Shown here: positions 6,067-64,000 of the stretch, piece after piece
How positions within the stretch are numbered: position 1 is the first letter of the stretch
Layout of the letters: each line of letters begins with the position of its first letter
NCBI GenBank assembly: GCA_951406725.2
Contig: OX597828.1
Location: 21,142,001-21,206,000, forward strand
DNA from: Octopus vulgaris
Taxonomy: Eukaryota
Length of the DNA stretch: 64,000 nt
Direction: 5' to 3'
The notes under the pieces: model-generated
What the model saw: the letters and a program-made list of their open reading frames with translations, nothing else
Told to the model about the DNA's origin: nothing
The model's database searches: none
Made by a program: the position numbers and the translations under genes

Positions 6067-6871
6067 CCTGCTACCCAGCAGCCAGTAAACACTGCCGCTA
6101 GTGTTGCTGCTGATAAGTAAGTGATTCACCATACTCCCTATGTTGGTGACGACACTTGTCTTAGACGTTTACTTTATATAATGGTAAGAACGTATATTTA
6201 CCATTCAACATACAATATCTATATAAACTTTAAAATAATTGATTTAAAGATATTAAAAATATTTTAAACTACAAAATGTAAGGATTGAATATCTTGACAA
6301 TATAGCAGGTAATTAAATGTGATTGGAATAAATAATTTACACATCAGTGGGTGTAACATTAACTTTGTAAATATAGTCTGTGGTAAAGAGGAAAAAATTA
6401 TCGCTTCTCGGCCTTTTGGCTAAGATCAAAGTGTAGTATCTGTTCTTATCAGCTTAATATCTGATACGGTCCCTATTTGGGACCATCGATATTAAACCGA
6501 TTTTTAGAACGAGGCGAAGTGTTAGGGGCTTGCTCCGCCTTTGCCACGGGTTGGCCTGGTATTGCAGTGCTTCCAGGATTCAGCCCATCTCCCACCCGGG
6601 AGATACAAATAAATAATAATGTCAGATATGTTATTACAGCCCCTCCCTTCAACGTTTATTATTTTTTTTGTTCATCATCGCAGCGGGTTTTCCGTTAGTT
6701 TATCTAATCGTTGCTAAAAAGACCTTCCTCGCCGTCAGCAAGCGATTTACGTTCGATCCCGCCTCAACCCATTTCCTTCCTCTTTGCTTTCTCATTTCAA
6801 ATCCCGTCATCGCTTTCACACCACCGCCTGCCAGCTTCAGTGTCTTTAGAGGGGACCCTTTTTTCTTCTAA
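6067..6871 (+). repeat. Left arm of an ~800-bp inverted repeat (U2 gene plus flanks)
   Basis: Reverse complement of 12710-13500, highly similar from CCTGCTACCCAGCAGCCAGT to TTTTCTTCTAA. Confidence 0.95.
6400..6591 (+). ncRNA. U2: U2 spliceosomal snRNA
   Basis: Starts ATCGCTTCTCGGCCTTTTGGCTAAGATCAAAGTGTAGTATCTGTTCTT, includes the branch-pairing GTAGTA, an Sm-like GATTTTTAG and loop IV TATTGCAGT; about 192 nt. Confidence 0.97.
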
Positions 6872-7456
6872 GCCCCACACGGCTTCGGCAGAAGGTAATG
6901 GGCGAAGCTTCTGCTGACTCTTTCGCCACAACTTGCTCTCACTCTTTCCTCTTGCAGCTAACCTGCAACGAACCGGCGTCCCATCCAGGTAAGGAACCTA
7001 TATGCCAAGGAAGAGACGGAAATACATACTGGCGTTTATTGTGATTTAAAAACCTCCCACCCGTGACAATCGCATCTGCTGTTTTCTCCCAGAGACTATG
7101 CTCGTAAGTAGTTATGGTGTCAGATACCAGAATTCCTACCAATTGAGCCTGTCTGTTAGCTGCTATTTCTACTTGGTTGATAGATAGGGAATGTCACTTC
7201 TTTCGTGCACCTACATTGTTTGCAGCTATTATACTTACCTGGCACAGATTTTTCCTCGGATTACGTCGGATTATTTTACGCTGTAAGCTGTTATGTTAGT
7301 TCGTTCTGTTTGTTCTGGATTTACACGTACAATTTTTGGATTATTATCTTGTGGAACAAAGTAATTTTCGCCCTTCGGGGGTAGAAAATTTCTTTTTATA
7401 TATGAACTATTAACTCAGTGTGGAATTAACTTTTATCTTGTCACTTGAATTTTAAT

Positions 7457-8937
7457 ATGGATCTTGACTTAACGTCAAATTCTGATTTTCCCGAGATGGG
7501 AGAAGGTATAAATAATGGAAAGCAAAAGGATACAAAGGAGAAACAAAGTTTTTCGGAAGCCGTTGGAGGCAATGTTATAGAACTGGAAGTAGCAATGGGG
7601 GAACTCTTCCAGTTCAGAAAGTTAATGCAAAGGAATGGAGAAGAAACAAGATTAATACCGCCCCCTGAAACGTTACAAGCAATCCGTGAGAAGACGGTAA
7701 TTTACAAATTAATGAGAAAAAAGTAGCGGATGTAAAAAATGAATTGGTAAAACGTTGTATGGCGCCAATTTGGAATAAGGTTCGCTATGTTGGCCGAGGA
7801 GTGAGAAGCGCTACGATAGAAGCGCATTTCGAGTCGGCTAGCATAGCGAAGGAAATTTCAACACAAACGTTGAAAAGTGAAGACATCCTGTTGCTGCCCA
7901 CTTACTTAGGCCGCAGAACAGCTAAAGTAACAATAGAGGACATACCAAGAGGTTACGATGTAATGTGGGCAGCAACAGCAGACATATTTGACGTAGAGGA
8001 GAAATTGAACATTTTAAACATGAGGATGAAAGAGGCGAAATTTTGGAAAGGCTAGCAGCTTGAAATGACCATTCAAGCGGACAACCGCAACGCTGGAGAG
8101 TTTGTCAGACAGGGTCTTCGTGGGGTATGGATACACTATGCGGGTATCGGTGGAGGGACGTAGGCCCAGATGTTTCAAATGTGGACAGAAGGGTCACGTT
8201 CGCTCAGAATGCAAAAAGAAAAAAACCCTTAATGCCCCCCTTCAAACCGCTGTGGAAAACAAAGCAGACATCACAGCAACAACAAAAGAGAACACCCGGA
8301 AAAAGCAAACTGAAAGTCAAAAGGAGGAAAAGAAAATGAATGGAAAACAAAACGAAAACGAAAAGTTGGAAATTTTTTATCAAATGGAAAAGAACTGGAA
8401 GTAATGGAATATACGACTGTAACCAACAAAAGGAAGAAATCCAATACCCCGGACTCCCCACCCCAAACAAAAAGAAAAACAAACGCAGAAGAACAACACA
8501 AAAAAATTATCCAATCCCACCCCGCTGGCACTACTTTTGTAGGCCAGCATTTCATTAAACCCCAGCCCCCAACTTTAAAAGGATTCAAAAAAAACATAGG
8601 TGCATTGCTTATAATGCGAAAAACGAGAGAGTGGTATGGTTCATAAAGGCGAAACCAAACATAAAATGTTTCAAGTCGACGGAAAAAGACCCGGATTGGA
8701 GGTATGCGAAGGTTGGAGAGGAAGAGTGAAAGGAGAGACTCTTCCAACTACACGTAAAAGACAACCTAATAAAAGATGTCACACAAGAGGTGATAGCTGG
8801 GAAATTGAATATTAGCCCGGCAGCCACTCCATCCCAGAGCCCGGTGGCAACGCCGGTGAAATGCCCAGCAGCTACGGAGAGTGTGGGGGAGACAGGCAGA
8901 CATAAGTTGCCATGCTCCCTCTCACAAACGTAAGTAA
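7457..8937 (+). pseudogene. Tx1 ORF1 (gag-like, zinc knuckle), disrupted
   Basis: Fragments 7445-7726, 7744-8055, 8102-8404 and 8404-8646. Contains CFKCGQKGHVRSEC and aligns with the 60519 ORF1 (PIW...V.RG, LPTYLGRRT vs FPSYRGRRT). One frame ends KRK-TAA. Confidence 0.85.
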
Positions 8938-8957
8938 CAAACTTTCTTCATTCATTG

Positions 8958-11900
8958 ATGATTAAGTTGGGCTGTATAAATGTGCGTGGAATGGAGTCGA
9001 AATGGAAACAGGCTTGTTTGCTGAACGACCTCATGACACACAGAATAGATGTAGCCATTGTCACCGAGTTCAAGATGAGAGGAACCCAAGCGTTCTCGCA
9101 TCTTCTCAATGGTTACGAGAAATTTATTTCTCCTAGCCGAGGAGGAAGTGCAGGCGTGGCAGTCCTCATCAGGAAGAACTTGGACTTACAGGTAAGTACT
9201 GTGTTTCTGGACCCAGAAGGTAGGCTGGTTGTCCTCGATGTAACTCACATGAGTAAGCAGTCCTTCAGGTTGGTAGCTGTTTATGCTCCTAATGAGGGTA
9301 GGCAGAATGGTTTTTATCGGAACTTGGAGCACTTTCTAGTGACGTCTAAAACGGTAGTATTGGTAGGGGATTTCAACACTATCATCGATGCGCAGATCGA
9401 TAGTGTGGGCTCGTCTGATAGAAGAGGGAATCCTTGCCTCAAGGGTCTACTGACGAGCTTTAATCTAGTAGATCGGTTTCGAATGGATGAGCCGAGCATT
9501 CCACAGTGGACGTGGAGTAACAATGACGGCTCACGCAGATCGTATAAAGAAAGGGTATTTGTTAGAGAACGAGATAGGAATAGCATTAGCTGTCCACAAT
9601 TTTGTATTGTGCCATACACGGATCACAAACTAGTGACGTGTGAGGTACATGTAGATAAATGCCATAGACAGGGACCCGGGTACTGGAAAATGAACAAGTC
9701 TATTTTGGCTTGTGAAGCTTTCCGTAACCGGATTATGGAATTAGTCCAGAGGGCATTATGTGGAACCATCATTAATAATAGATGGTGGATCGCCCTCAAA
9801 AGAGCCATCCGTTTGGAGTCCATTAGATTTAGCAACCAGCTAAGTTTAGAGAGGACTAGAATAGAGGGCGATTTAGTTAAGAACTTAGACGAGGCAATGG
9901 GATCTGGCTGTGCATCTAGAGTGTTAGCAGAGAGAACGGTCTTGTACCGTCACCTCAATGCCAAGCATGAAGGGTGTAGAGTCAGAGCTAAGCTACGTGC
10001 AGTGAAATGAGAAGGTATTAGTGTTGCCGGATGGGCACGTCGTGTGGAGAGTCAGAAGGGCAAAAAGTCCTGTATTAAGTCTTTAACTGACGAACAGGGA
10101 CGCAAAATCTATGGACAGGAGGTGATATAGAAGGTCTTTCAACAGCATTTCGCTCGGTTGTTTGGGGAGGGCGATCCACTCGAGCGAGGGGAGGACTTAC
10201 AGAACTTCCTAGCTGGTGGGCCTCGGCTCTCGCCACGCGGAGCGGAATGCTGTGAAGGACCGATTACTCCCGCGGAGGTAAGAGAGGTTTTGGCTGAATG
10301 CGCCCGGGAAAAGTCGCCGGGACTGGATGGTCTGCCCTATGAGTTTTATTGTTGTATGCCGGACTTGTTCGGGGACATACTGGCAAGCGTCTACGCAAAC
10401 TGGCAACAGAATGGGAGGATTCCCAGTTCTGTGAGCCGGGGAGTTGTGACGCTGATCCAGAAAGACCCGAGCAAGGGGGATAATATTAGTAATTATAGGC
10501 CCATAACTCTACTTAGTGTAGAGTTAAAGATTTTGGCCAAGGTGTTAGCAGAAAGGTTGAAGGTCGTCATGAAGAAACTTGTCGGGAAGGCACAGACATG
10601 TGCAATCCCAGGCAGGTCGATCGAAGATAATCTTCACCTTCTCTGCTACACTATAGACAGGGTTGAGCAATTAGCCGGCAAAGGAGGGGCATTGGTCCAT
10701 TTAGACCAAAGTAAAGCATTTGATAGGGTAGATCATCAGTACCTGGCGACGGTTCTCGAAGCGGCTGGGCTAGGCCCTGACTTTCGCCGGTGGATCGCAG
10801 CTATGTACAGCGGTATCAAGTCCACAGTCCAGGTAAAAGGTTACCTAACGGAACCGTTTTCGATTAAGCGTTCAGTTCGTCAAGGATGTCCCTTGTCCCC
10901 TCTCCTGTACGTTTTGGCTCTTGAGCCATTGCTGCGGAAGTTGGAGACGGTGGGATGCAATCCTAATGAAATCGGATGCGGTAAGTCTGTTTCTGCTTAT
11001 GCGGATGACGTCACCTTCATCGTGTCCAACGAAGCACAACTAACTCGTGTAGAAGGTGCTCTCCGAAGATACGAAGCGGTGGCAGGGGCAAAAGTTAACA
11101 AGGACAAGTCCACTGGTTTGCGCCTCGGCACCTGGAGGAACAAGCCGATATCGTCCAGTGCTGTTGGACACTGGACAGATGGTCCTATTAAATTGCTTGG
11201 AGTTTGGTTTGGTTCAGACTCCCAGACGGAGAAGAATTGGAGCGAGGTAGTGACCAAGGTAGAAGCATTAGCACGGAAGTGGTCCGGAAGGCATCTATCC
11301 TTGAAAGGGAGGGCGGAGGTAGTACAGGTGTTTATAGCATCTGTCATCACCTATCGCCTGACCGTCGTGCCTTGCCCCGATTTGTGGCTAAGCAAGTTGG
11401 ATCGACTCCTTTTCCGCTTTTTGTGGAAGGGAGTAAAGCCACTTGTAAGGCGCTCCGTGTGTTGCCAGGAACCACTAAAGGGTGGGCTGGGGATGCCTTG
11501 GTTAATGATGCGCAGGCATGCGCTGAGACCGAGACATCTCTGGTTTCACCTGGCGGGTGATAAGGTGTGGAGTCCGCTGGCAGATAAATTCTTCCCGCGA
11601 CCGGACTCTATGGAGAGATTTAAACCCGGTTTCATTAAAAGACGGAATCTGACTTTATGGCAGAAGGAGTGTCGACAGGCACTCTGGCTGATCCACAAGA
11701 TAGGCAAAGCCGGCAGCGGGAATACCACCTCGACATTTTATAGATGGATGGTAGAGGCAAAAAATGACGGCATCTTAGGAGGGGCTCTGGGGTTCGATGA
11801 GGATCAACTATCCAACCTGTTTAAGAAGACTTTCAGGCCGGGGTATTTGGACAATTACCAAAAATCCCTGACTTGGCAGTGCTATAGGAATGCTCTACCT

Positions 11901-12356
11901 GTTCGCGATAAGTTATATAGGCATGGAATGTCAGTGCCACCGACATGTCCAAGATGTGGGTTGGACGATGAAACCGTTCAGCACGCTTTTGTACATTGTC
12001 AGGAGCTGTCAGGCTTAATAAGTTACGTAGAACACGTGTTGTCGCATCTGGGACGAGTACAGCTATCGGCTGGCTCTATAATAAAGATGATACCGCCAGC
12101 TGGACTCTCAAAGGAAGGTGAGGCTTGTTTTCACTGTACGGTGGCAGTACTGAAAGAGTGTGTGTGGAGAACTAGAATGGAAGGTTTGGTGACAGGATCC
12201 TTTGTCTCTGGATATGGTATGTTAAAATACTTCAGATATCATCTGAAGAGCAAGATGGATTTGGAGAAGAGGAACCTGACACAGAAAAAGTATGTGAATC
12301 GATGGAAGGATGTGATAAAAAAGGTGGGTGTGAGTAACCCTGCTTCGTCATCATGA
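8958..12356 (+). pseudogene. Tx1 ORF2 (APE endonuclease, reverse transcriptase, zinc finger) with two in-frame stops
   Basis: Motifs NVRG, VYAP, GDFN, TDH; KSPGLDG, YRPITLL, DQSKAFD, QGCPLSP, YADD; CPRC...H...C. ORFs 8955-10010 and 10158-12356 share a frame and are split by TGA at 10008 and TAG at 10128. Confidence 0.93.
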
Positions 12357-12709
12357 AAGGAGAAAATAGTCTCTGGGCTCTTAGGCTGTCGGGTAAGAAT
12401 ATTTACTGTGATATACCTATCTGGCCAAAATTATTTTAAATAAAAAAAAAAAAGGAGAAAAGTAAAGTCTAGAATTGTAATCAATAATCAACATATGTAA
12501 ATATCAAATGAACAACATAAACTTTTTGTAATTATGTTTTGTATTGTAATGTCCTATCTCTGTAACGATTTTTATAATCATAAAGATTTTATACTTTGTA
12601 GTAGTAAAGGGGAAATGCAGTTTCACCGTAACTTTGCTTGGCACCTGAGACTGGTGTGAAAGATAGAGAGGGGAAAAGTATACTTAACATGGAGACCTGA
12701 ATCGACTGT

Positions 12710-13500
12710 TTAGAAGAAAAAAGGGTCCCCTCTAAAGGCACTGAAGCTGGCAGGCGGTGGTGTGAAAGCGATGACGGGATTTGAAATGAGAAAGCAAAGA
12801 GGAAGGAAATGGGTTGAGGCGGGATCGAACGTGAATCGCTTGCTGACGGCGAGGAAGGTCTTTTTAGCAACGATAGATAACTAACGAAAAACCCGCTGCG
12901 ATGATGAACAAAAAAAAATATATATTGAGGGAAGGGGCTGTAATAACATATCTGACATTATTATTTATTTGTATCTCCCGGGTGGGAGATGGGCTGAATC
13001 CTGGAAGCACTGCAATACCAGGCCAACCAGTGGCAAAGGCGGAGCAAGCCCCTAACACTTCGCCTCGTTCTAAAAATCAGTTTAATATCGATGGTCCCAA
13101 ATAGGGACCGTATCAGATATTAAGCTGATAAGAACAGATACTACACTTTGATCTTAGCCAAAAGGCCGAGAAGCGATAATTTTTTCCTCTTTACCACAGA
13201 CTTTATTAACACAAGTTAATGTTACACCCACTGATGTGTAAATTATTTATTCCAATCACATTTAATTACCTGCTATATTGTCAAGATATTCAATCCTTAC
13301 ATTTTCTAGTTTAAGATATTTTTAATATCTTTAAATCAATTATTTTAAAGTTTATGTAGATATTGTATGTTGAATGGTAAATATACGTTCTTACCATTGT
13401 GTAAAGTAAACGTTTAAGACAAGTGACGTCACCAAGCTAGGGGGGCTCGGCGAATCACTTATCAGCAGTGTGGGCTATTGACTGGCTGCTGGGTAGCAGG
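12710..13500 (-). repeat. Right arm of the ~800-bp inverted repeat
   Basis: Reverse complement of 6067-6871. Confidence 0.95.
12986..13177 (-). ncRNA. U2: U2 spliceosomal snRNA, second copy
   Basis: Reverse complement of 6400-6591 with two substitutions that I could see (AAACCGAT/AAACTGAT and CACGGGTT/CACTGGTT). Confidence 0.97.
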
Positions 13501-17359: not shown

Positions 17360-18320
17360 TATCTATCTATCTATCTACTTGTGTCTAACACAGGGCTCGG
17401 GGAACATGTTTTAACCAATAACCCCAAAATATATTTATTTATGCTGACGTTACCCCGTTTGATTTGAAAGGAAGAACATCAGTCTTTGAATTCAAAAGGT
17501 TCATTGAATCTATTTTAAAAAATCTATTTACACGTTCATTACATTGCACAGATGCAGCGTTGCCAAAAGGAAAATTTCTATCGCAACAAGGAACACGTTT
17601 TTTTTTAATGTAATTTTACTTATGTTTAACGAGTCCTCATTACCCCCAAGAATTTCATTTTTACTGCACCTAGGGTAATTTAATCCAGGTATATGAAATC
17701 TTTACACCGGTTCGCTGACACCTGCTCTAACATGTTTTGCGGTATTTCGTCCGTCTTTATATTTTGTACACCGAGGTCGACTTTGCTATTCTACCTCTCG
17801 GGGTCGATAACATAAATATTAGTTGTTCATTACTCCTGCCGCCCAGAAATTGCAGGCCTTGTGCCAAAATTTGAAATCATTATTGCACGAGTAGGTATTC
17901 AAAGCAGCGAACTGGTTGGCCGGGCGAAATGCTAAACGGCACTTTGTCCGTCTTTACATGCTGAATTCAAATTCCGCTGAAGGCGACTTTGCCTTTCGTC
18001 CTTACGGTGTTCGATAAAATAAGTACCAGTCATGTGCTGAGAGGCCGATGTAATCGACTTCACCACCCCTACACAATTTAAGCGTTTAGAAAGAATATAA
18101 AATAACCGGCATTGAAAACCTTAAATTTGAGAAAAAAGAATTCAGAATAGGCGCAGGAGTGGCTGTGTGGTAAGTAGCTTGCTAACCAGCCACATGGTTC
18201 CGGGTTCAGTCCCACTGCGCGGCATCTTGGGCAAGTGTCTTCTGCTATAGCCCCAGGCCGACCAATGCCTTGTGAGTGGATTTGGTAGACGGAAACTGAA
18301 AGAAGCCTGTCGTATATATG

Positions 18321-41914: not shown

Positions 41915-42290
41915 TGGAGGCGCAATGGCCCAGTGGTTAGGGCAGCGGACTCGCGGTCGTAGGATCGCGGTTTCGATTCCCAGACCGGGCGTTGTGAGTG
42001 TTTATTGAGCGAAAACACCTAAAAGCTCCACGAGGCTCCGGCAGGGGATGGTGGTTATCCCTGCTGTACTCTTTCACCACAACTTTCTCTTACTTCCTGT
42101 TTCTGTTGTACCTGTATTTCAAGGAGCTGGCCTTGTCACTCTCTGTGTCACGCTGAATATCCCTGAGAACTACGTTAAGGGTACACATGTCTGTGGAGTG
42201 CTCAGCCACTTACACGTTAATCTCACGAGCAGGCTGTTCCGTTGATCGGATCAACCGGAACTTCATCGTCGGAACCGACGGAGTGCTTTC
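41915..42290 (+). mobile_element. tRNA-derived SINE, family D
   Basis: Head GGAGGCGCAATGGCCCAGTGGTTAGG...GTTTCGATTCCC; the 3' part is also present at 35806-35930 and 54470-54640(-). Confidence 0.8.
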
Positions 42291-59628: not shown

Positions 59629-60518
59629 GTGTGTGTGTGTGGCACCATTGGTAAATATATAATTAATGAAGATTAATACAATTAATAAGATTAGAGTAAT
59701 ATAAAATTTATGAAGTTGCTGATTTGCAAGTTGAATGTAGACAAATATAGTTAAACACAATAGCGGATGACGGTAGATAGTTGCTGTTGATGGTGATGAT
59801 GATGACGATGACGAATACGATGACGACGACGATGACAATGACGACGACGACGACGACGACGATGACGATGTTGATTACGACGATGATAACGACGTCATCG
59901 ACACTGATGATGATGAGAAAGGAAATGACATCGATACGGAAATGAATCTCAAAATCTATTTAATGCAGTTATATGTCTTGCGACATTACGGAAATTTGTC
60001 AATGTAAAGGTTACGTACAGCTCAACCAGTTTGTAAATAGGTAAAATATTTTCGAAAATGTCCAATCGGAAAGAAATATTCATAATAAAAAACAGCAGGA
60101 GTGGCTGTGTGGTAAGTAGCTTGCTAACCTCACTGACAGAAGAGTGACTTTGCTTACCGTACTACGGTTTGGACGCGTTTTCTTCCCGGTAAGAGTTTTG
60201 CTGTGTTGTTAATTGTTGAATTCCTACTACTGAAAATTTGCCTTTAAACGTTGCTGAACTGTCTTGTTCTCCGGTTTTACCGGGAAATAATTGAATAATT
60301 TCTTACCGTTGAACTGTTAGCCACTGTGGCTTTTTATTTACGTGATTATATATAGTCCTGCCAGACTATTTTCGTGCCCCTCCCCCGAATGGGGGTGGGA
60401 ATTGGAATTTTTGAACTGCTTTTTTGAACTACTTTGGAAGAAAAACTTTCTATAGGTTTCCCAGTTTTGTGGGAAACCAATACTCGTAATTTTTGTGTTG
60501 TCTAATTTCAACAGAATA

Positions 60519-61924
60519 ATGTCTGTTGAAATTATTCACGAAAGTAGTGCTCTTGAGGAGAGCAATGTTAAAAAATTTTCTGCGGTAGCCGCAGTGGCTA
60601 CCGAGAACATTGACATCGATGTCAACCAGCTCGTCGAGCTATTTAAAAGAATGCAAGAGGAGGGTGGTGATGTTAAAATATCACCCTCCGCCAGTATCGT
60701 GGAGACCGAGAAGCGGACCGTAGTGTTTAAAACTTTCTGTCCACAAAGCAGAAGGTTCAAACACTTTGAAAAAAGCACCATCGAGAAATGCCTGTCCCCG
60801 ATTTGGAAGGACATCGTGTACGTCGCCAGGGGACGGGCATATGGCACTGTGGATGTCCGCTTCTCGGGGGAAGAAATGGCCCGCGGGCATTCTGTGAACC
60901 CCCTAAAAACCAAGGAGGTGGTACTTTTCCCAAGCTATAGGGGACGCAGGACGTCCCGGGTCAGGATTGTAGAAGCCCCGCCGGAAGTAGATCCGGCAGA
61001 GGTAGTGGCCGCCCTGTTATATAAAAGGGCGGACAAAATTAAAATACTAGAAGTAACATGCTCTGCCCCTCTATTTTGGCTCGGGCGTAACATTAATATA
61101 TTAATTCAAGGAACAGCGGAGGACCTGCAGCTCCTTCCTGAGAGGGTGCTCGTGGGCGAGAACATAGCCCTCAGGGTACAGGTCGAAGGCCGAAAACCCA
61201 CCTGTTACGCCTGCGGCAAAAAAAGGCTACATTCGTGTAGACTGTCCAGACAAGCAAAAGAAACCGCAGACACCAGGCCCCTCAGATAATAAAAAAGTCC
61301 CTACCCTTGCAAACTCCCCTACCCCTACAAAAACAAAAAATCCCACTCCTGCTGTTACGGTGCCAACCCCAAAACAGACTGAAGAAAAAACCCAGCCCTC
61401 GCACTCACAAACCCCTACATTATTAAAACCTCCCACCCCCCCTAAAAACTGTGGCGCCTACCGAACAAACTTTTGCTACCCCAGACGATACCATGGAGGT
61501 ATCAGAGGGGGGATTTACACCAGTTCGTAAAAGAATTCGTGCATCATCCCCGTCCACATCCCCTACAAAAAATAATAAAAACAAAGACACACCACAGACA
61601 CGGAAAAAAAAATCCCGCTCAACTGGCCCAGAAAAAGAAGACAAAAAAGAAAATGAACTCATATTAATGGAATTCGACACACAAGACAAATACATAAACG
61701 ATATTGTGGTTCAGCATCAGTCAGCAAGACTGTACAACAAATACAAAGATCGAAATAGACACGCGTGGATTGCGGAAACAACGTTCAAACAATTAAAAGA
61801 CAGACACCCAAACGCCATCCGGTATATCGCGAACTTGCCGGACTATCTGAAGAAAGAGGAGAAAGAAGGGGCCCACAAACGTGTGGTGAGGTCGGCCCCC
61901 ACCTCTCCAACGAAACGTAAGTAG
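60519..61924 (+). pseudogene. Tx1 ORF1 with two apparent frameshifts
   Basis: ORFs 60495-61289 and 61451-61924. Removing one A from the A7 run at 61218-61224 gives CYACGKKGYIRVDC. The ORF ends KRK-TAG. Confidence 0.8.
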
Positions 61925-61941
61925 AACTTTTACTTTTTGTA

Positions 61942-64000
61942 ATGGCTTCGCTTAACCTTGGTTGTTTAAATGTGCGTGGTCTGAGTTCGAAGTGGAAGCA
62001 GGCTTGTTTCCTCGACGACCTCAGATCACATGATATACATGTGATGGTTGCTACAGAGACCAAGCTGGACAGCCTACAAACCTTCTCGCCTCTCCTGAAT
62101 GGCTACGAGAAAATCATGTCTCCTGGCCAGACCGGAGGGCGAGGGGGCGTAGTGGTACTGATCCGTAAAGACTTGGCTCTACAGACAAGTACAGTCTATG
62201 TAGACCCAGAAGGTGGGCTGGTCGTCCTTGATGTGACATGCAGCAGTAAGGCCTTCAGGTTGATCGGACTCTATGCACCTTGTGCTAGAGGTTTCCAAAC
62301 TGATTTTTATCGGCGCCTAGAGGGCTTTCTCGTGACGTCGAAGACTTTAGTGATATTAGGGGACTTTAATGCTATCGTTGACGTACACATCGATAGCGTT
62401 GGCTCGATCTATAGGAAAGTGAACTCACGTCTCGTGGATCTGCTTAAGCGGTTTCAGCTGGCAGATCGTTACAGACTTGACCATCCGAACGTCCCAGAGT
62501 GGACCTGGATGAGTGGCGACGGAAGGTTCAAGTCTTATCTAGACAGGATAGTGATAAAAACTAGAGATAAGTCTAGTTTTAGTTGTCCACAGCTCGTCCA
62601 GGTACCCTATACTGACCATAGAATGGTCACGTGTAGACTGGACATAGATAGCACACTTAAGATAGGAACCGGCTACTGGAAGCTGAACAAGTCCATTTTG
62701 ACACGCGAGGCATACCGTAGCCGGATTAAGGTGTTAGTGCAGAGGGCGTTAACCGGAGCCGTGGTTAATAACCGGTGGTGGTTCGTCCTCAAAAGAGCCA
62801 TTCGATTCGAGTCCATTAGATTTAGTAAACAACTAAGACTAGATAGGGCTAGAATAGAAGGGCAACTAGTTAAGAACTTAGAGGAAGCGTTGAGGTTGGG
62901 CTCTGCATCTCACATTTTAGCGGCGAGAACGGCATTAGACCGTCACCTCAAAACCAAACATGAGGGATGTAGAGTTCGGGCTAAAGTACGAGCATTGAGC
63001 CGTGAGGGAATTAATGTTGCCGGATGGGCCCGTACGATAGAAACACAGCGTGGAAACGATGCCACAATTGGGTCTCTTGTTGATGAAAACGGATGCACGA
63101 TCAAGAAGCGGGACGAGATGTGTGAGGCACTTCACAAGCACTTCGCCGAGTTGTTCGGGAGGTGCGGGACGCTGGATCATGGTGAGGCCCTTAGGGACTT
63201 CCTGTCTGGTGGCCCGCGCCTCTCGACACGAGAGGCTGAGTGCTGTGAAGGGCCAATCACAGCCGAGGAAGTAATCGAGGTGTTGGGCAAATGCCCCGGG
63301 GAGAAGTCGCCGGGTCTCGATGGTCTGCCCTATGAATTTTATAGAAGTATGCCAGACTTGTTCGGGCACCTGCTGGCTAGCGTCTACGCCAACTGGCAGC
63401 AGAATGGGAGAATTCCCAAGTCTGCGAGCCGGGGGGCGGTGACGTTGATCAGGAAGGACCCGAACAAGGGGGACGAGATAGGGAACTTCAGGCCCATAAC
63501 TCTGTTAAACACAGAGTTAAAGATTCTGGCCAAGGTGCTAGCAAAAAGGTTGGCGCGGGTCGTGGACAAACTTGTCGGGGAAGCGCAAACGTGCGCTATC
63601 CCCGGCAGAACGATCCACGACAATCTCCACCTTATACGCTACTCCTTAGAGAGGGTGGGGAAGCTTTCTGGCGCAGGGGGAGCACTGGTACATTTAGACC
63701 AGTCCAAAGCATTTGATAGGGTCGACCATCGGTACCTGGCGGCGGTCCTCGGAGAGGCTGGCCTAGGCCCGACCTTTCGAGGTTGGATCGCTGCTTTGTA
63801 TAGCGACATCGATTCTGTAGTCAAGGTGAACGGTTCCTTTTCGAAGCCGTTCAGGATCGAGCGTTCAGTTCGTCAAGGGTGTCCCCTGTCCTCGCTCCTA
63901 TACGTATTGGCTCTTGAGCCCTTGCTGCGGAAGTTAGAGGCACTAGGGGGCGCGCCGCATGATCTATGGTGTGGAAGAGGAGCTACGGCGTATGCGGATG
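61942..64000 (+). CDS. Tx1 ORF2 (APE and RT), apparently open to the window edge
   Basis: MASLNLGCLNVRGLSSKWKQ...GDFN...TDH...KSPGLDG...DQSKAFD...RQGCPLS...AYAD in one frame (686 codons). It is probably missing from the track because no stop is reached. Confidence 0.88.
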   Translation, partial: MASLNLGCLNVRGLSSKWKQACFLDDLRSHDIHVMVATETKLDSLQTFSPLLNGYEKIMSPGQTGGRGGVVVLIRKDLALQTSTVYVDPEGGLVVLDVTCSSKAFRLIGLYAPCARGFQTDFYRRLEGFLVTSKTLVILGDFNAIVDVHIDSVGSIYRKVNSRLVDLLKRFQLADRYRLDHPNVPEWTWMSGDGRFKSYLDRIVIKTRDKSSFSCPQLVQVPYTDHRMVTCRLDIDSTLKIGTGYWKLNKSILTREAYRSRIKVLVQRALTGAVVNNRWWFVLKRAIRFESIRFSKQLRLDRARIEGQLVKNLEEALRLGSASHILAARTALDRHLKTKHEGCRVRAKVRALSREGINVAGWARTIETQRGNDATIGSLVDENGCTIKKRDEMCEALHKHFAELFGRCGTLDHGEALRDFLSGGPRLSTREAECCEGPITAEEVIEVLGKCPGEKSPGLDGLPYEFYRSMPDLFGHLLASVYANWQQNGRIPKSASRGAVTLIRKDPNKGDEIGNFRPITLLNTELKILAKVLAKRLARVVDKLVGEAQTCAIPGRTIHDNLHLIRYSLERVGKLSGAGGALVHLDQSKAFDRVDHRYLAAVLGEAGLGPTFRGWIAALYSDIDSVVKVNGSFSKPFRIERSVRQGCPLSSLLYVLALEPLLRKLEALGGAPHDLWCGRGATAYAD

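Follow-up and report, generated by a model that had tools for sequence, protein, structure and literature searches.

A Tx1-like LINE in a U2 snRNA gene cluster of Octopus vulgaris with the U1 snRNA 5' end on its 5' junction

Here, we report that 17 bases in a 64,000-nt stretch of Octopus vulgaris DNA (the window, analysed at its full length) reproduce the 5' end of U1 snRNA exactly and are located at the 5' junction of a Tx1-like LINE that is decayed but full-length (Table 1). The U1 sequence stands at the 5' end of the element and inside the insertion and, judged from this single site, the LINE works like the U1-headed Tx1 elements of crocodilians and has their structure. The locus is neither a U1 gene nor, for this copy, a Keno-like insertion. 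We give an even chance to the explanation that the head stems from a jump of the reverse transcriptase onto U1 RNA, at this insertion or in an ancestor. As a U1-headed Tx1, the element extends the crocodilian pattern to a mollusc.

Table 1. Features at and around the U1-headed LINE, in window coordinates
Feature	Position	Strand	Remarks
U2 cassette, left (upstream region, gene and 280-nt 3' flank)	6067..6871	+	
U2 snRNA gene, complete	6400..6593	+	Rfam RF00004, 184 bits, model 1-192
Fragment of very high-copy repeat	6868..7010	.	Right end approximate
Left spacer (target flank)	7011..7228	.	Empty-site joints leave at 7218-7221
Target-site duplication, left copy, 8 bp TTATACTT	7229..7236	+	Last six bases are U1 nt 1-6
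Exact U1 snRNA nt 1-17	7231..7247	+	nt 7-17 (7237-7247) within insert
5' leader of LINE	7237..7456	+	Junction contigs; ATG at 7457
Sm-like 9-mer AATTTTTGG	7331..7339	+	Offset and spacing wrong for U1
UUCG hairpin CCC-TTCG-GGG, stem 7358-7395	7358..7395	+	
ORF1 with frame changes and stops, CCHC-type motif	7457..8933	+	End approximate
ORF2: AP-type endonuclease, reverse transcriptase, zf-RVT	8958..12356	+	In-frame stops at 10008 and 10128
3' UTR and very short tail	12357..12588	+	Sister copies align up to 12583
Target-site duplication, right copy	12589..12596	+	Empty-site joints enter at 12589-12593
Right spacer, without U1 body	12597..12709	.	U1 profile and Rfam
U2 snRNA gene no. 2, complete, facing the first	12984..13177	-	Rfam RF00004, 182 bits

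The 5' end of U1 snRNA is single-stranded and pairs with 5' splice sites. The original prediction had placed an exact U1 5' end of 13 nt at 7231, 640 nt past a U2 gene. The place, the letters (ATACTTACCTGGC at 7231-7243) and the U2 gene were confirmed; the match itself is longer, with 17 of 17 nt identical to invertebrate U1 genes, for which the reference came from metagenome loci and not from the host's own U1. A U1 profile run over the window gave a sole match, at 7231-7268 (E 0.0056), and it found nothing in the right flank or in the modelled empty site. A scan for the 17-mer listed 125 exact metagenome matches (hence at least 125, at partly redundant loci). Among those listed, 60 were full U1 sequences, a class that is partly circular because the profile was made from 48 of the same metagenome sequences; 25 were U1 sequences ended by a contig edge, 16 were U1 5' pieces of at least 26 nt, and 24 were short matches only. 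With Rfam RF00003, the seven U1-looking loci among 12 chosen ones scored 132-160 bits, and the five non-U1-looking loci gave no match.

To delimit the insertion, DNA contigs from four of the 24 listed runs (X1, X2, X3 and X5, the run type of X3 being unrecorded), which carry three organism labels, were aligned on 6600-12712, and the output was read for the 40 of 1185 difference rows and the 24 of 3472 loose ends listed. Three empty alleles, found under two organism labels, skip the whole element, and none of them holds a U1 body. Their joints lead from 7218 to 12589 (X1, depth 75.7), from 7219 to 12593 (X1, depth 63.6; 13 of the 15 letters in between equal window 7218-7230) and from 7221 to 12591 (X5, depth 110.3). 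The occupied junction is crossed by contigs in all four runs (records 1, 9, 17 and 26, with 1, 1, 6 and 7 differing letters), all of them from the same site as the window copy. The insert is flanked by the 8-bp duplication (a repeat this long arose with 29 of 3000 random partners) and ends at 12588; it starts at 7237 or, with the overlap included, at 7231. U1 nt 1-6 overlap the duplication, and the insert proper opens with the eleven bases of nt 7-17. ATACTT is found at the site in two of the three empty alleles, and the third is without two of those bases; because two of the three carry it, we conclude that ATACTT predates the insertion. Neither of the 5' ends that had been proposed for the element, about 6938 and about 7246, was upheld; rather, the junction contigs and the duplication place it at 7231-7237. 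A start at 6938 was rejected because this position falls inside the high-copy repeat, and an end at the A run near 12450 was rejected because sister copies align on to 12583.

The empty alleles also bear on the first of the readings originally offered, that the element had either inserted into or captured the start of a U1 gene. Capture stands, in that U1 nt 1-17 head the LINE. The other form, in which the element landed in a genuine U1 gene here and the remainder was lost later, could be imagined in a neighborhood where snRNA genes are clustered, as the two U2 genes are, and where the sequence at 12680 is another U1-like start, though a mismatched one; however, in the empty alleles under both organism labels the flanks meet with no U1 body between them, the duplication is intact, no U1 match was obtained in 12350-12950 (where Rfam gave one chance match), and the upstream DNA does not resemble that of the U2 genes. 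For the 80 nt upstream of 7231, 300 of 2000 shuffles compared as well with the U2 upstream region, as did 258 of 500 in a second comparison. We therefore consider such an insertion extremely improbable.

Chance would have to work at the same junction: ATACTT of the target and the LINE's own first bases would together happen to spell the U1 5' end or, equally, a flawless minus-strand 5' splice site. Six of the bases do come from the target, about 250,000 windows were read and rare matches selected among them, the 24 short metagenome matches lie in unrelated DNA, and a second LINE in the window begins with a few similar bases. Even so, a coincidence appears improbable to us, as it has to supply eleven further bases in exact register at one junction (1e-7 expected per site), the 11-mer at 7231-7241 occurs only once in the window, and U1 heads are documented on Tx1 families (PMC4494074).

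In the explanation that we prefer, the reverse transcriptase, on reaching the end of the element's RNA, would jump to U1 RNA and thereby add a U1-derived head. The resulting cDNA would terminate in a stretch complementary to U1 nt 1-17; the final six bases of this cDNA could anneal to ATACTT of the target top strand, and this six-base pairing would set where the junction falls and how long the duplication is. Such a jump may date from this insertion, or it may be older and have taken place in a master copy that passed the head on to its descendants. During TPRT, the end of the cDNA can anneal to a few top-strand bases of the target before second-strand synthesis, and such microhomology annealing is known at LINE 5' junctions (PMC2718515). 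A template jump is further supported by an exact match that begins at U1 +1 (expected number of exact matches per window, both strands counted, 6.5e-6 for 17 nt and 1.8e-3 for 13 nt), by the three empty-site joints together with the duplication, by the presence of ATACTT at the target in two of the three empty alleles, by the spanning of the occupied junction in four of four runs under three organism labels, and by the 35-nt SINE head of the second LINE, a parallel capture of the 5' part of a small RNA. On the other hand, just 11 of the 17 bases can be assigned to the insert without ambiguity, and their match is somewhat weakened in that the first bases of the second LINE resemble the last few of the eleven. 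A microhomology of 6 nt exceeds the 1-5 nt of R1 and R2 (PMC2718515) and would be simpler if the endonuclease prefers U1-like DNA. In the available part of a study of human U1 copies, template-switch chimeras of U1 and L1 are absent among 33 copies (PMC4476161). Finally, the sister copies are nearly all full-length, with a seemingly common 3' continuation, a pattern not expected from a one-off jump.

The sister copies were characterized by contig depth. Relative to the ORF1 contigs of the family, the junction contig has a depth of ~5% in X1 and X2 (60 versus ~1040-1200 and 17 versus 250-296), about a quarter in X3 (48 versus 171-191) and ~40% in X5 (294 versus 646-731). Depth is not a copy number, but these ratios suggest that most family copies in organism A are located elsewhere. 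If contigs at a depth of ~60 in X1 and ~17 in X2 were single-copy, the family would comprise ~17-18 copies, depth being unreliable as a measure of copy number. In X5, the contig of the U2 flank has a depth of 281, similar to the raised depth of the element's 5' junction, suggesting, with the same caveat that depth does not count copies, that the U2 flank and the element head were amplified as a unit in organism C. Sister ORF1 sequences differ by ~5-7% from the window copy and assemble into long contigs, and depth is nearly even over leader, ORF1 and 3' UTR in X1 (1123, 1039-1207 and 1001-1050) and X2 (242, 250-296 and 283-334), while the leader of X3 has a depth of only 55 at 7341. The sister copies thus look young and mostly full-length. 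The alignments of two family-level contigs stop at 12583: X2 record 16, at a depth of 283, leaves 40 letters, and X1 record 8, at a depth of 1001, leaves 9. A head-to-tail array in the four runs was considered and rejected, no 3'-to-5' joint being present among the rows listed.

An alternative is a LINE family resident in U1 genes, whose master copy would sit just after U1 nt 17, so that transcripts from the U1 promoter would start with nt 1-17; the window copy would then be an off-target insertion at the look-alike TTATACTT in an snRNA gene cluster. Residence in U1 genes would explain in one step why the head starts at U1 +1 and why the target is ATACTT, and it agrees with the nearly even sister depth from leader to 3' UTR, which implies that the copies are mostly full-length and alike. 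The letters past 12583, if they are 3' sequence, would represent a continuation that is common to the sisters, unlike the window flank and unreported as a joint, and Keno provides a precedent for a U2-targeting Tx1. However, no U1-flanked copy was seen among the contigs, the letters left over past 12583 may extend the 3' UTR, two of the ATACTT bases are missing from one of the three empty alleles, amplification of an array also gives an even depth, and distant relatives lie in plain head-to-tail arrays without U1 or U2. On balance, we regard U1 residence as possible, if somewhat unlikely. In its fullest form, which we hold to be doubtful, a cephalopod Tx1 lineage would home to the 5' ends of U1 genes and borrow the U1 promoter, the head would guide second-strand joining at U1-like targets, and the window copy would have landed off target and then been amplified with the U2 repeat unit in at least one species.

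The original prediction had further noted that the U1 5' end, an Sm-like site and a UUCG hairpin form a span close to U1 length, and had suggested a U1 mimic in the leader or an intramolecular mask for a splice donor. The three motifs lie where they had been reported and cover 161 nt, near U1 length; nevertheless, they do not form one U1-like unit. A search of 6900-7700 with Rfam, including RF00003, at E ≤ 10 returned no match, and the segment 7279-7391 fits U1 nt 49-165 no better than shuffles do (138 of 200 score as well), which bears out the remark that stem-loops I-III are not recognizable. The Sm-like motif has an offset of 101 and a spacing of 43 nt to the UUCG loop; in the real U1 sequences, of which 46 of 48 were listed, the Sm offset is 124-127 and the spacing to the loop 23-25. 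Thus, relative to RF00003, there is no U1 cloverleaf with stem-loops I-III, and the Sm site and terminal hairpin are misplaced; the rest of U1, beyond the identical nt 1-17, is not matched. The fold of the 165-mer is at shuffle level (z -0.44). A candidate decayed stem-loop I at 7248-7278 is a weak hint at most, given that its best-of-48 score was reached by 42 shuffles and 80 window pieces, out of 1500 each, and its mean score by 317 of 1500 shuffles.

We conclude that the Sm-like motif and the hairpin belong to the LINE leader and not to U1. The Sm-like 9-mer probably reflects a T-rich leader; the window has 22 looser Sm-type motifs and nine copies of CTTCGG. The second LINE, which is without a U1 head, has a comparable C-rich/G-rich hairpin with comparable flanks in its leader (60362-60417), a likeness judged by eye and unscored. 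Conservation of the hairpin region in sister contigs, which cover it with one G fewer in the G run (row 7377) as the sole difference, would agree with a functional mimic. Similarly, a mask gains from the pairing of the 15-mer with the donor-like CCAGGTAAG at 6985-6993 (-15.3 kcal/mol) and with a donor-like site in ORF2 at 9184-9199 (-15.1). However, other sites pair as well as the proposed donor (-16.6 at 12382, in addition to 9184), and this donor lies outside the element, within the high-copy repeat that also contains position 6938. Accordingly, the mimic fails on body, Sm spacing and fold, the mask fails on the position of its donor, and we consider either of them very improbable. A U1 mimic, unsupported here, would have been the most surprising outcome.

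The assignment of the element to the Tx1/L1 group is based on the ORF2 domains, the CCHC motif of ORF1 and the target-site duplication. ORF2 is 35% identical to that of Xenopus Tx1 (E 1.6e-68), and its closest named relatives are a protein of Argonauta hians (55%) and one of cuttlefish (47%). In BLAST with the reverse transcriptase, Xenopus Tx1 scored 188 bits versus 158 for an L1-type fish protein. In a reverse transcriptase tree of 35 rows, from which short matches were excluded, the backbone between Tx1 and L1 was not firmly separated; because the tree did not firmly part the two groups, we call the element Tx1-like. The second, related element begins near 60130 (60130-64000+), is 72% identical over ORF2, and has its 3' end beyond the window. 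Its head of 35 nt (60095-60129) agrees at every base with the 5' part of the SINE that is common in the window (35/35, copy at 18153); this head is without the first four bases of the SINE and is preceded by an A-rich run.

Several known systems resemble the window LINE, as far as the available parts of the cited papers describe them. Kojima (2015) reported U1 heads on Tx1-2_Crp, Tx1-2B_Crp and Tx1-4_AMi, a U2 head on Tx1-11_Crp, and the repeated addition of 3'-truncated U1 pieces (PMC4494074). With the crocodilian Tx1-Mar, the window LINE shares a Tx1-type organization with AP-endonuclease, a sense U1 5' part at the 5' end, a target duplication (~10 bp there, 8 bp here) and the lack of an evident internal promoter (PMC4494074). 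It differs in that the head has 17 nt and overlaps the target duplication, while the heads of SINEU-2 reach ~50 nt, and in that the host is a cephalopod and the target a U2-linked spacer, in contrast to crocodilians and a Mariner target (PMC4494074). Keno, of the Tx1 clade, and Utopia, of RLE type, target U2 snRNA genes (PMC4640811, PMC4494074), and a Tx1-type element at an snRNA gene cluster is shared with Keno. However, unlike in Keno and Utopia, both U2 genes are intact here, the left one is separated from the insert by 640 nt, and the snRNA piece is from U1. The rest of an snRNA gene, which follows the 3' end in Keno-like insertions, was not found, with neither U1 nor U2 after 12596 in this copy. 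Mammalian snRNA/L1 chimeras likewise consist of an snRNA fused 5' to a LINE within one target duplication but involve mostly U6 or U6atac on 5'-truncated L1, whereas the window holds a short U1 5' piece on a full-length LINE (PMC4476161). Dada-U1 is also tied to U1 but is a DNA transposon inside U1 genes, with a 6-bp duplication and an unrelated protein and structure (PMC3706591). A paper on Octopus vulgaris repeats describes recently active L1-Tx1 families, and the word "snRNA" was not found in its available text (PMC13282606). Our literature search, with Repbase and most subscription papers outside it, revealed no U1-headed Tx1 outside crocodilians and no LINE that targets U1 genes; the U1-linked mobile elements it found were U1-headed Tx1 families and U1-targeting DNA transposons. 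The junction described here is unusually clean, with empty alleles, a target duplication and a 6-nt overlap, for the study of how snRNA heads join LINEs, and it bears on how such heads seed U1- and U2-headed SINEs.

The two U2 genes are the only Rfam matches in the entire window. The right U2 cassette (12710-13500) is an inverted copy of the left one (94% identical, ~800 bp each), and the likeness stops at the same base in both; without the LINE, the unit would be a convergent U2 pair with ~1 kb in between. The repeat at 6868-~7010 has a bin depth of 1.7e5-9.4e5, versus ~1e2-1e3 on both sides, and contains loose contig ends at 6868, 6952 and 6956; we infer that it is SINE-like. A related piece lies at 42061-42094. 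The donor-like 9-mer at 6985-6993 is followed, at 7081-7108, by a pyrimidine tract with CAG, an 11-nt stretch with ATG and a second donor-like site, an arrangement that may resemble a micro-exon, with chance as another possibility.

On the right side, the first 30 nt past the duplication (12597-12625) show a faint likeness, by eye, to the Sm-site region of U1 and were left unscored by both the U1 profile and Rfam. The U1-like start at 12680 (region 12624-12692) also has no U1 match by profile or Rfam. A motif 56 nt upstream of it may resemble a vertebrate snRNA promoter element, and the DNA upstream of 12680 is not significantly similar to the U2 upstream region (146 of 2000 shuffles as good).

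Single-protein scans of prokaryote-genome contigs and of viral contigs revealed no sister loci, and neither did an alignment-based viral scan. An alignment-based scan of genome contigs identified 40 loci of distant relatives (39 at 41-43% and one at 33%), none with a U1 profile match or a U2 match, and Rfam on nine of the 40 found one 5S rRNA. A bacterial MAG record (L126-L162, L164 and L165) consists largely of 6.4-kb head-to-tail arrays of Tx1-like LINEs, 41-43% identical to ORF2, and is most likely misbinned DNA of an animal host. Several leaders in these arrays have a C-rich/G-rich hairpin before ORF1, and in L140 and L146 its loop contains U1 nt 1-8. At L163 (4422-4534), a 5S rRNA gene without its 5' end lies behind a Tx1-like element that is more distantly related, as expected for a 5S-targeting family.

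Among the metagenome matches, L092, L093 and L096 run from U1 nt 1 to ~25-38 and then continue into one common foreign sequence, with a short duplication in L096; these loci possibly represent a U1-targeting element in another organism. In L017, L022, L035, L061, L065, L101, L115 and L117, U1 5' pieces of 34-95 nt are followed by unrelated DNA, and the contig of L022 carries further copies of U1.
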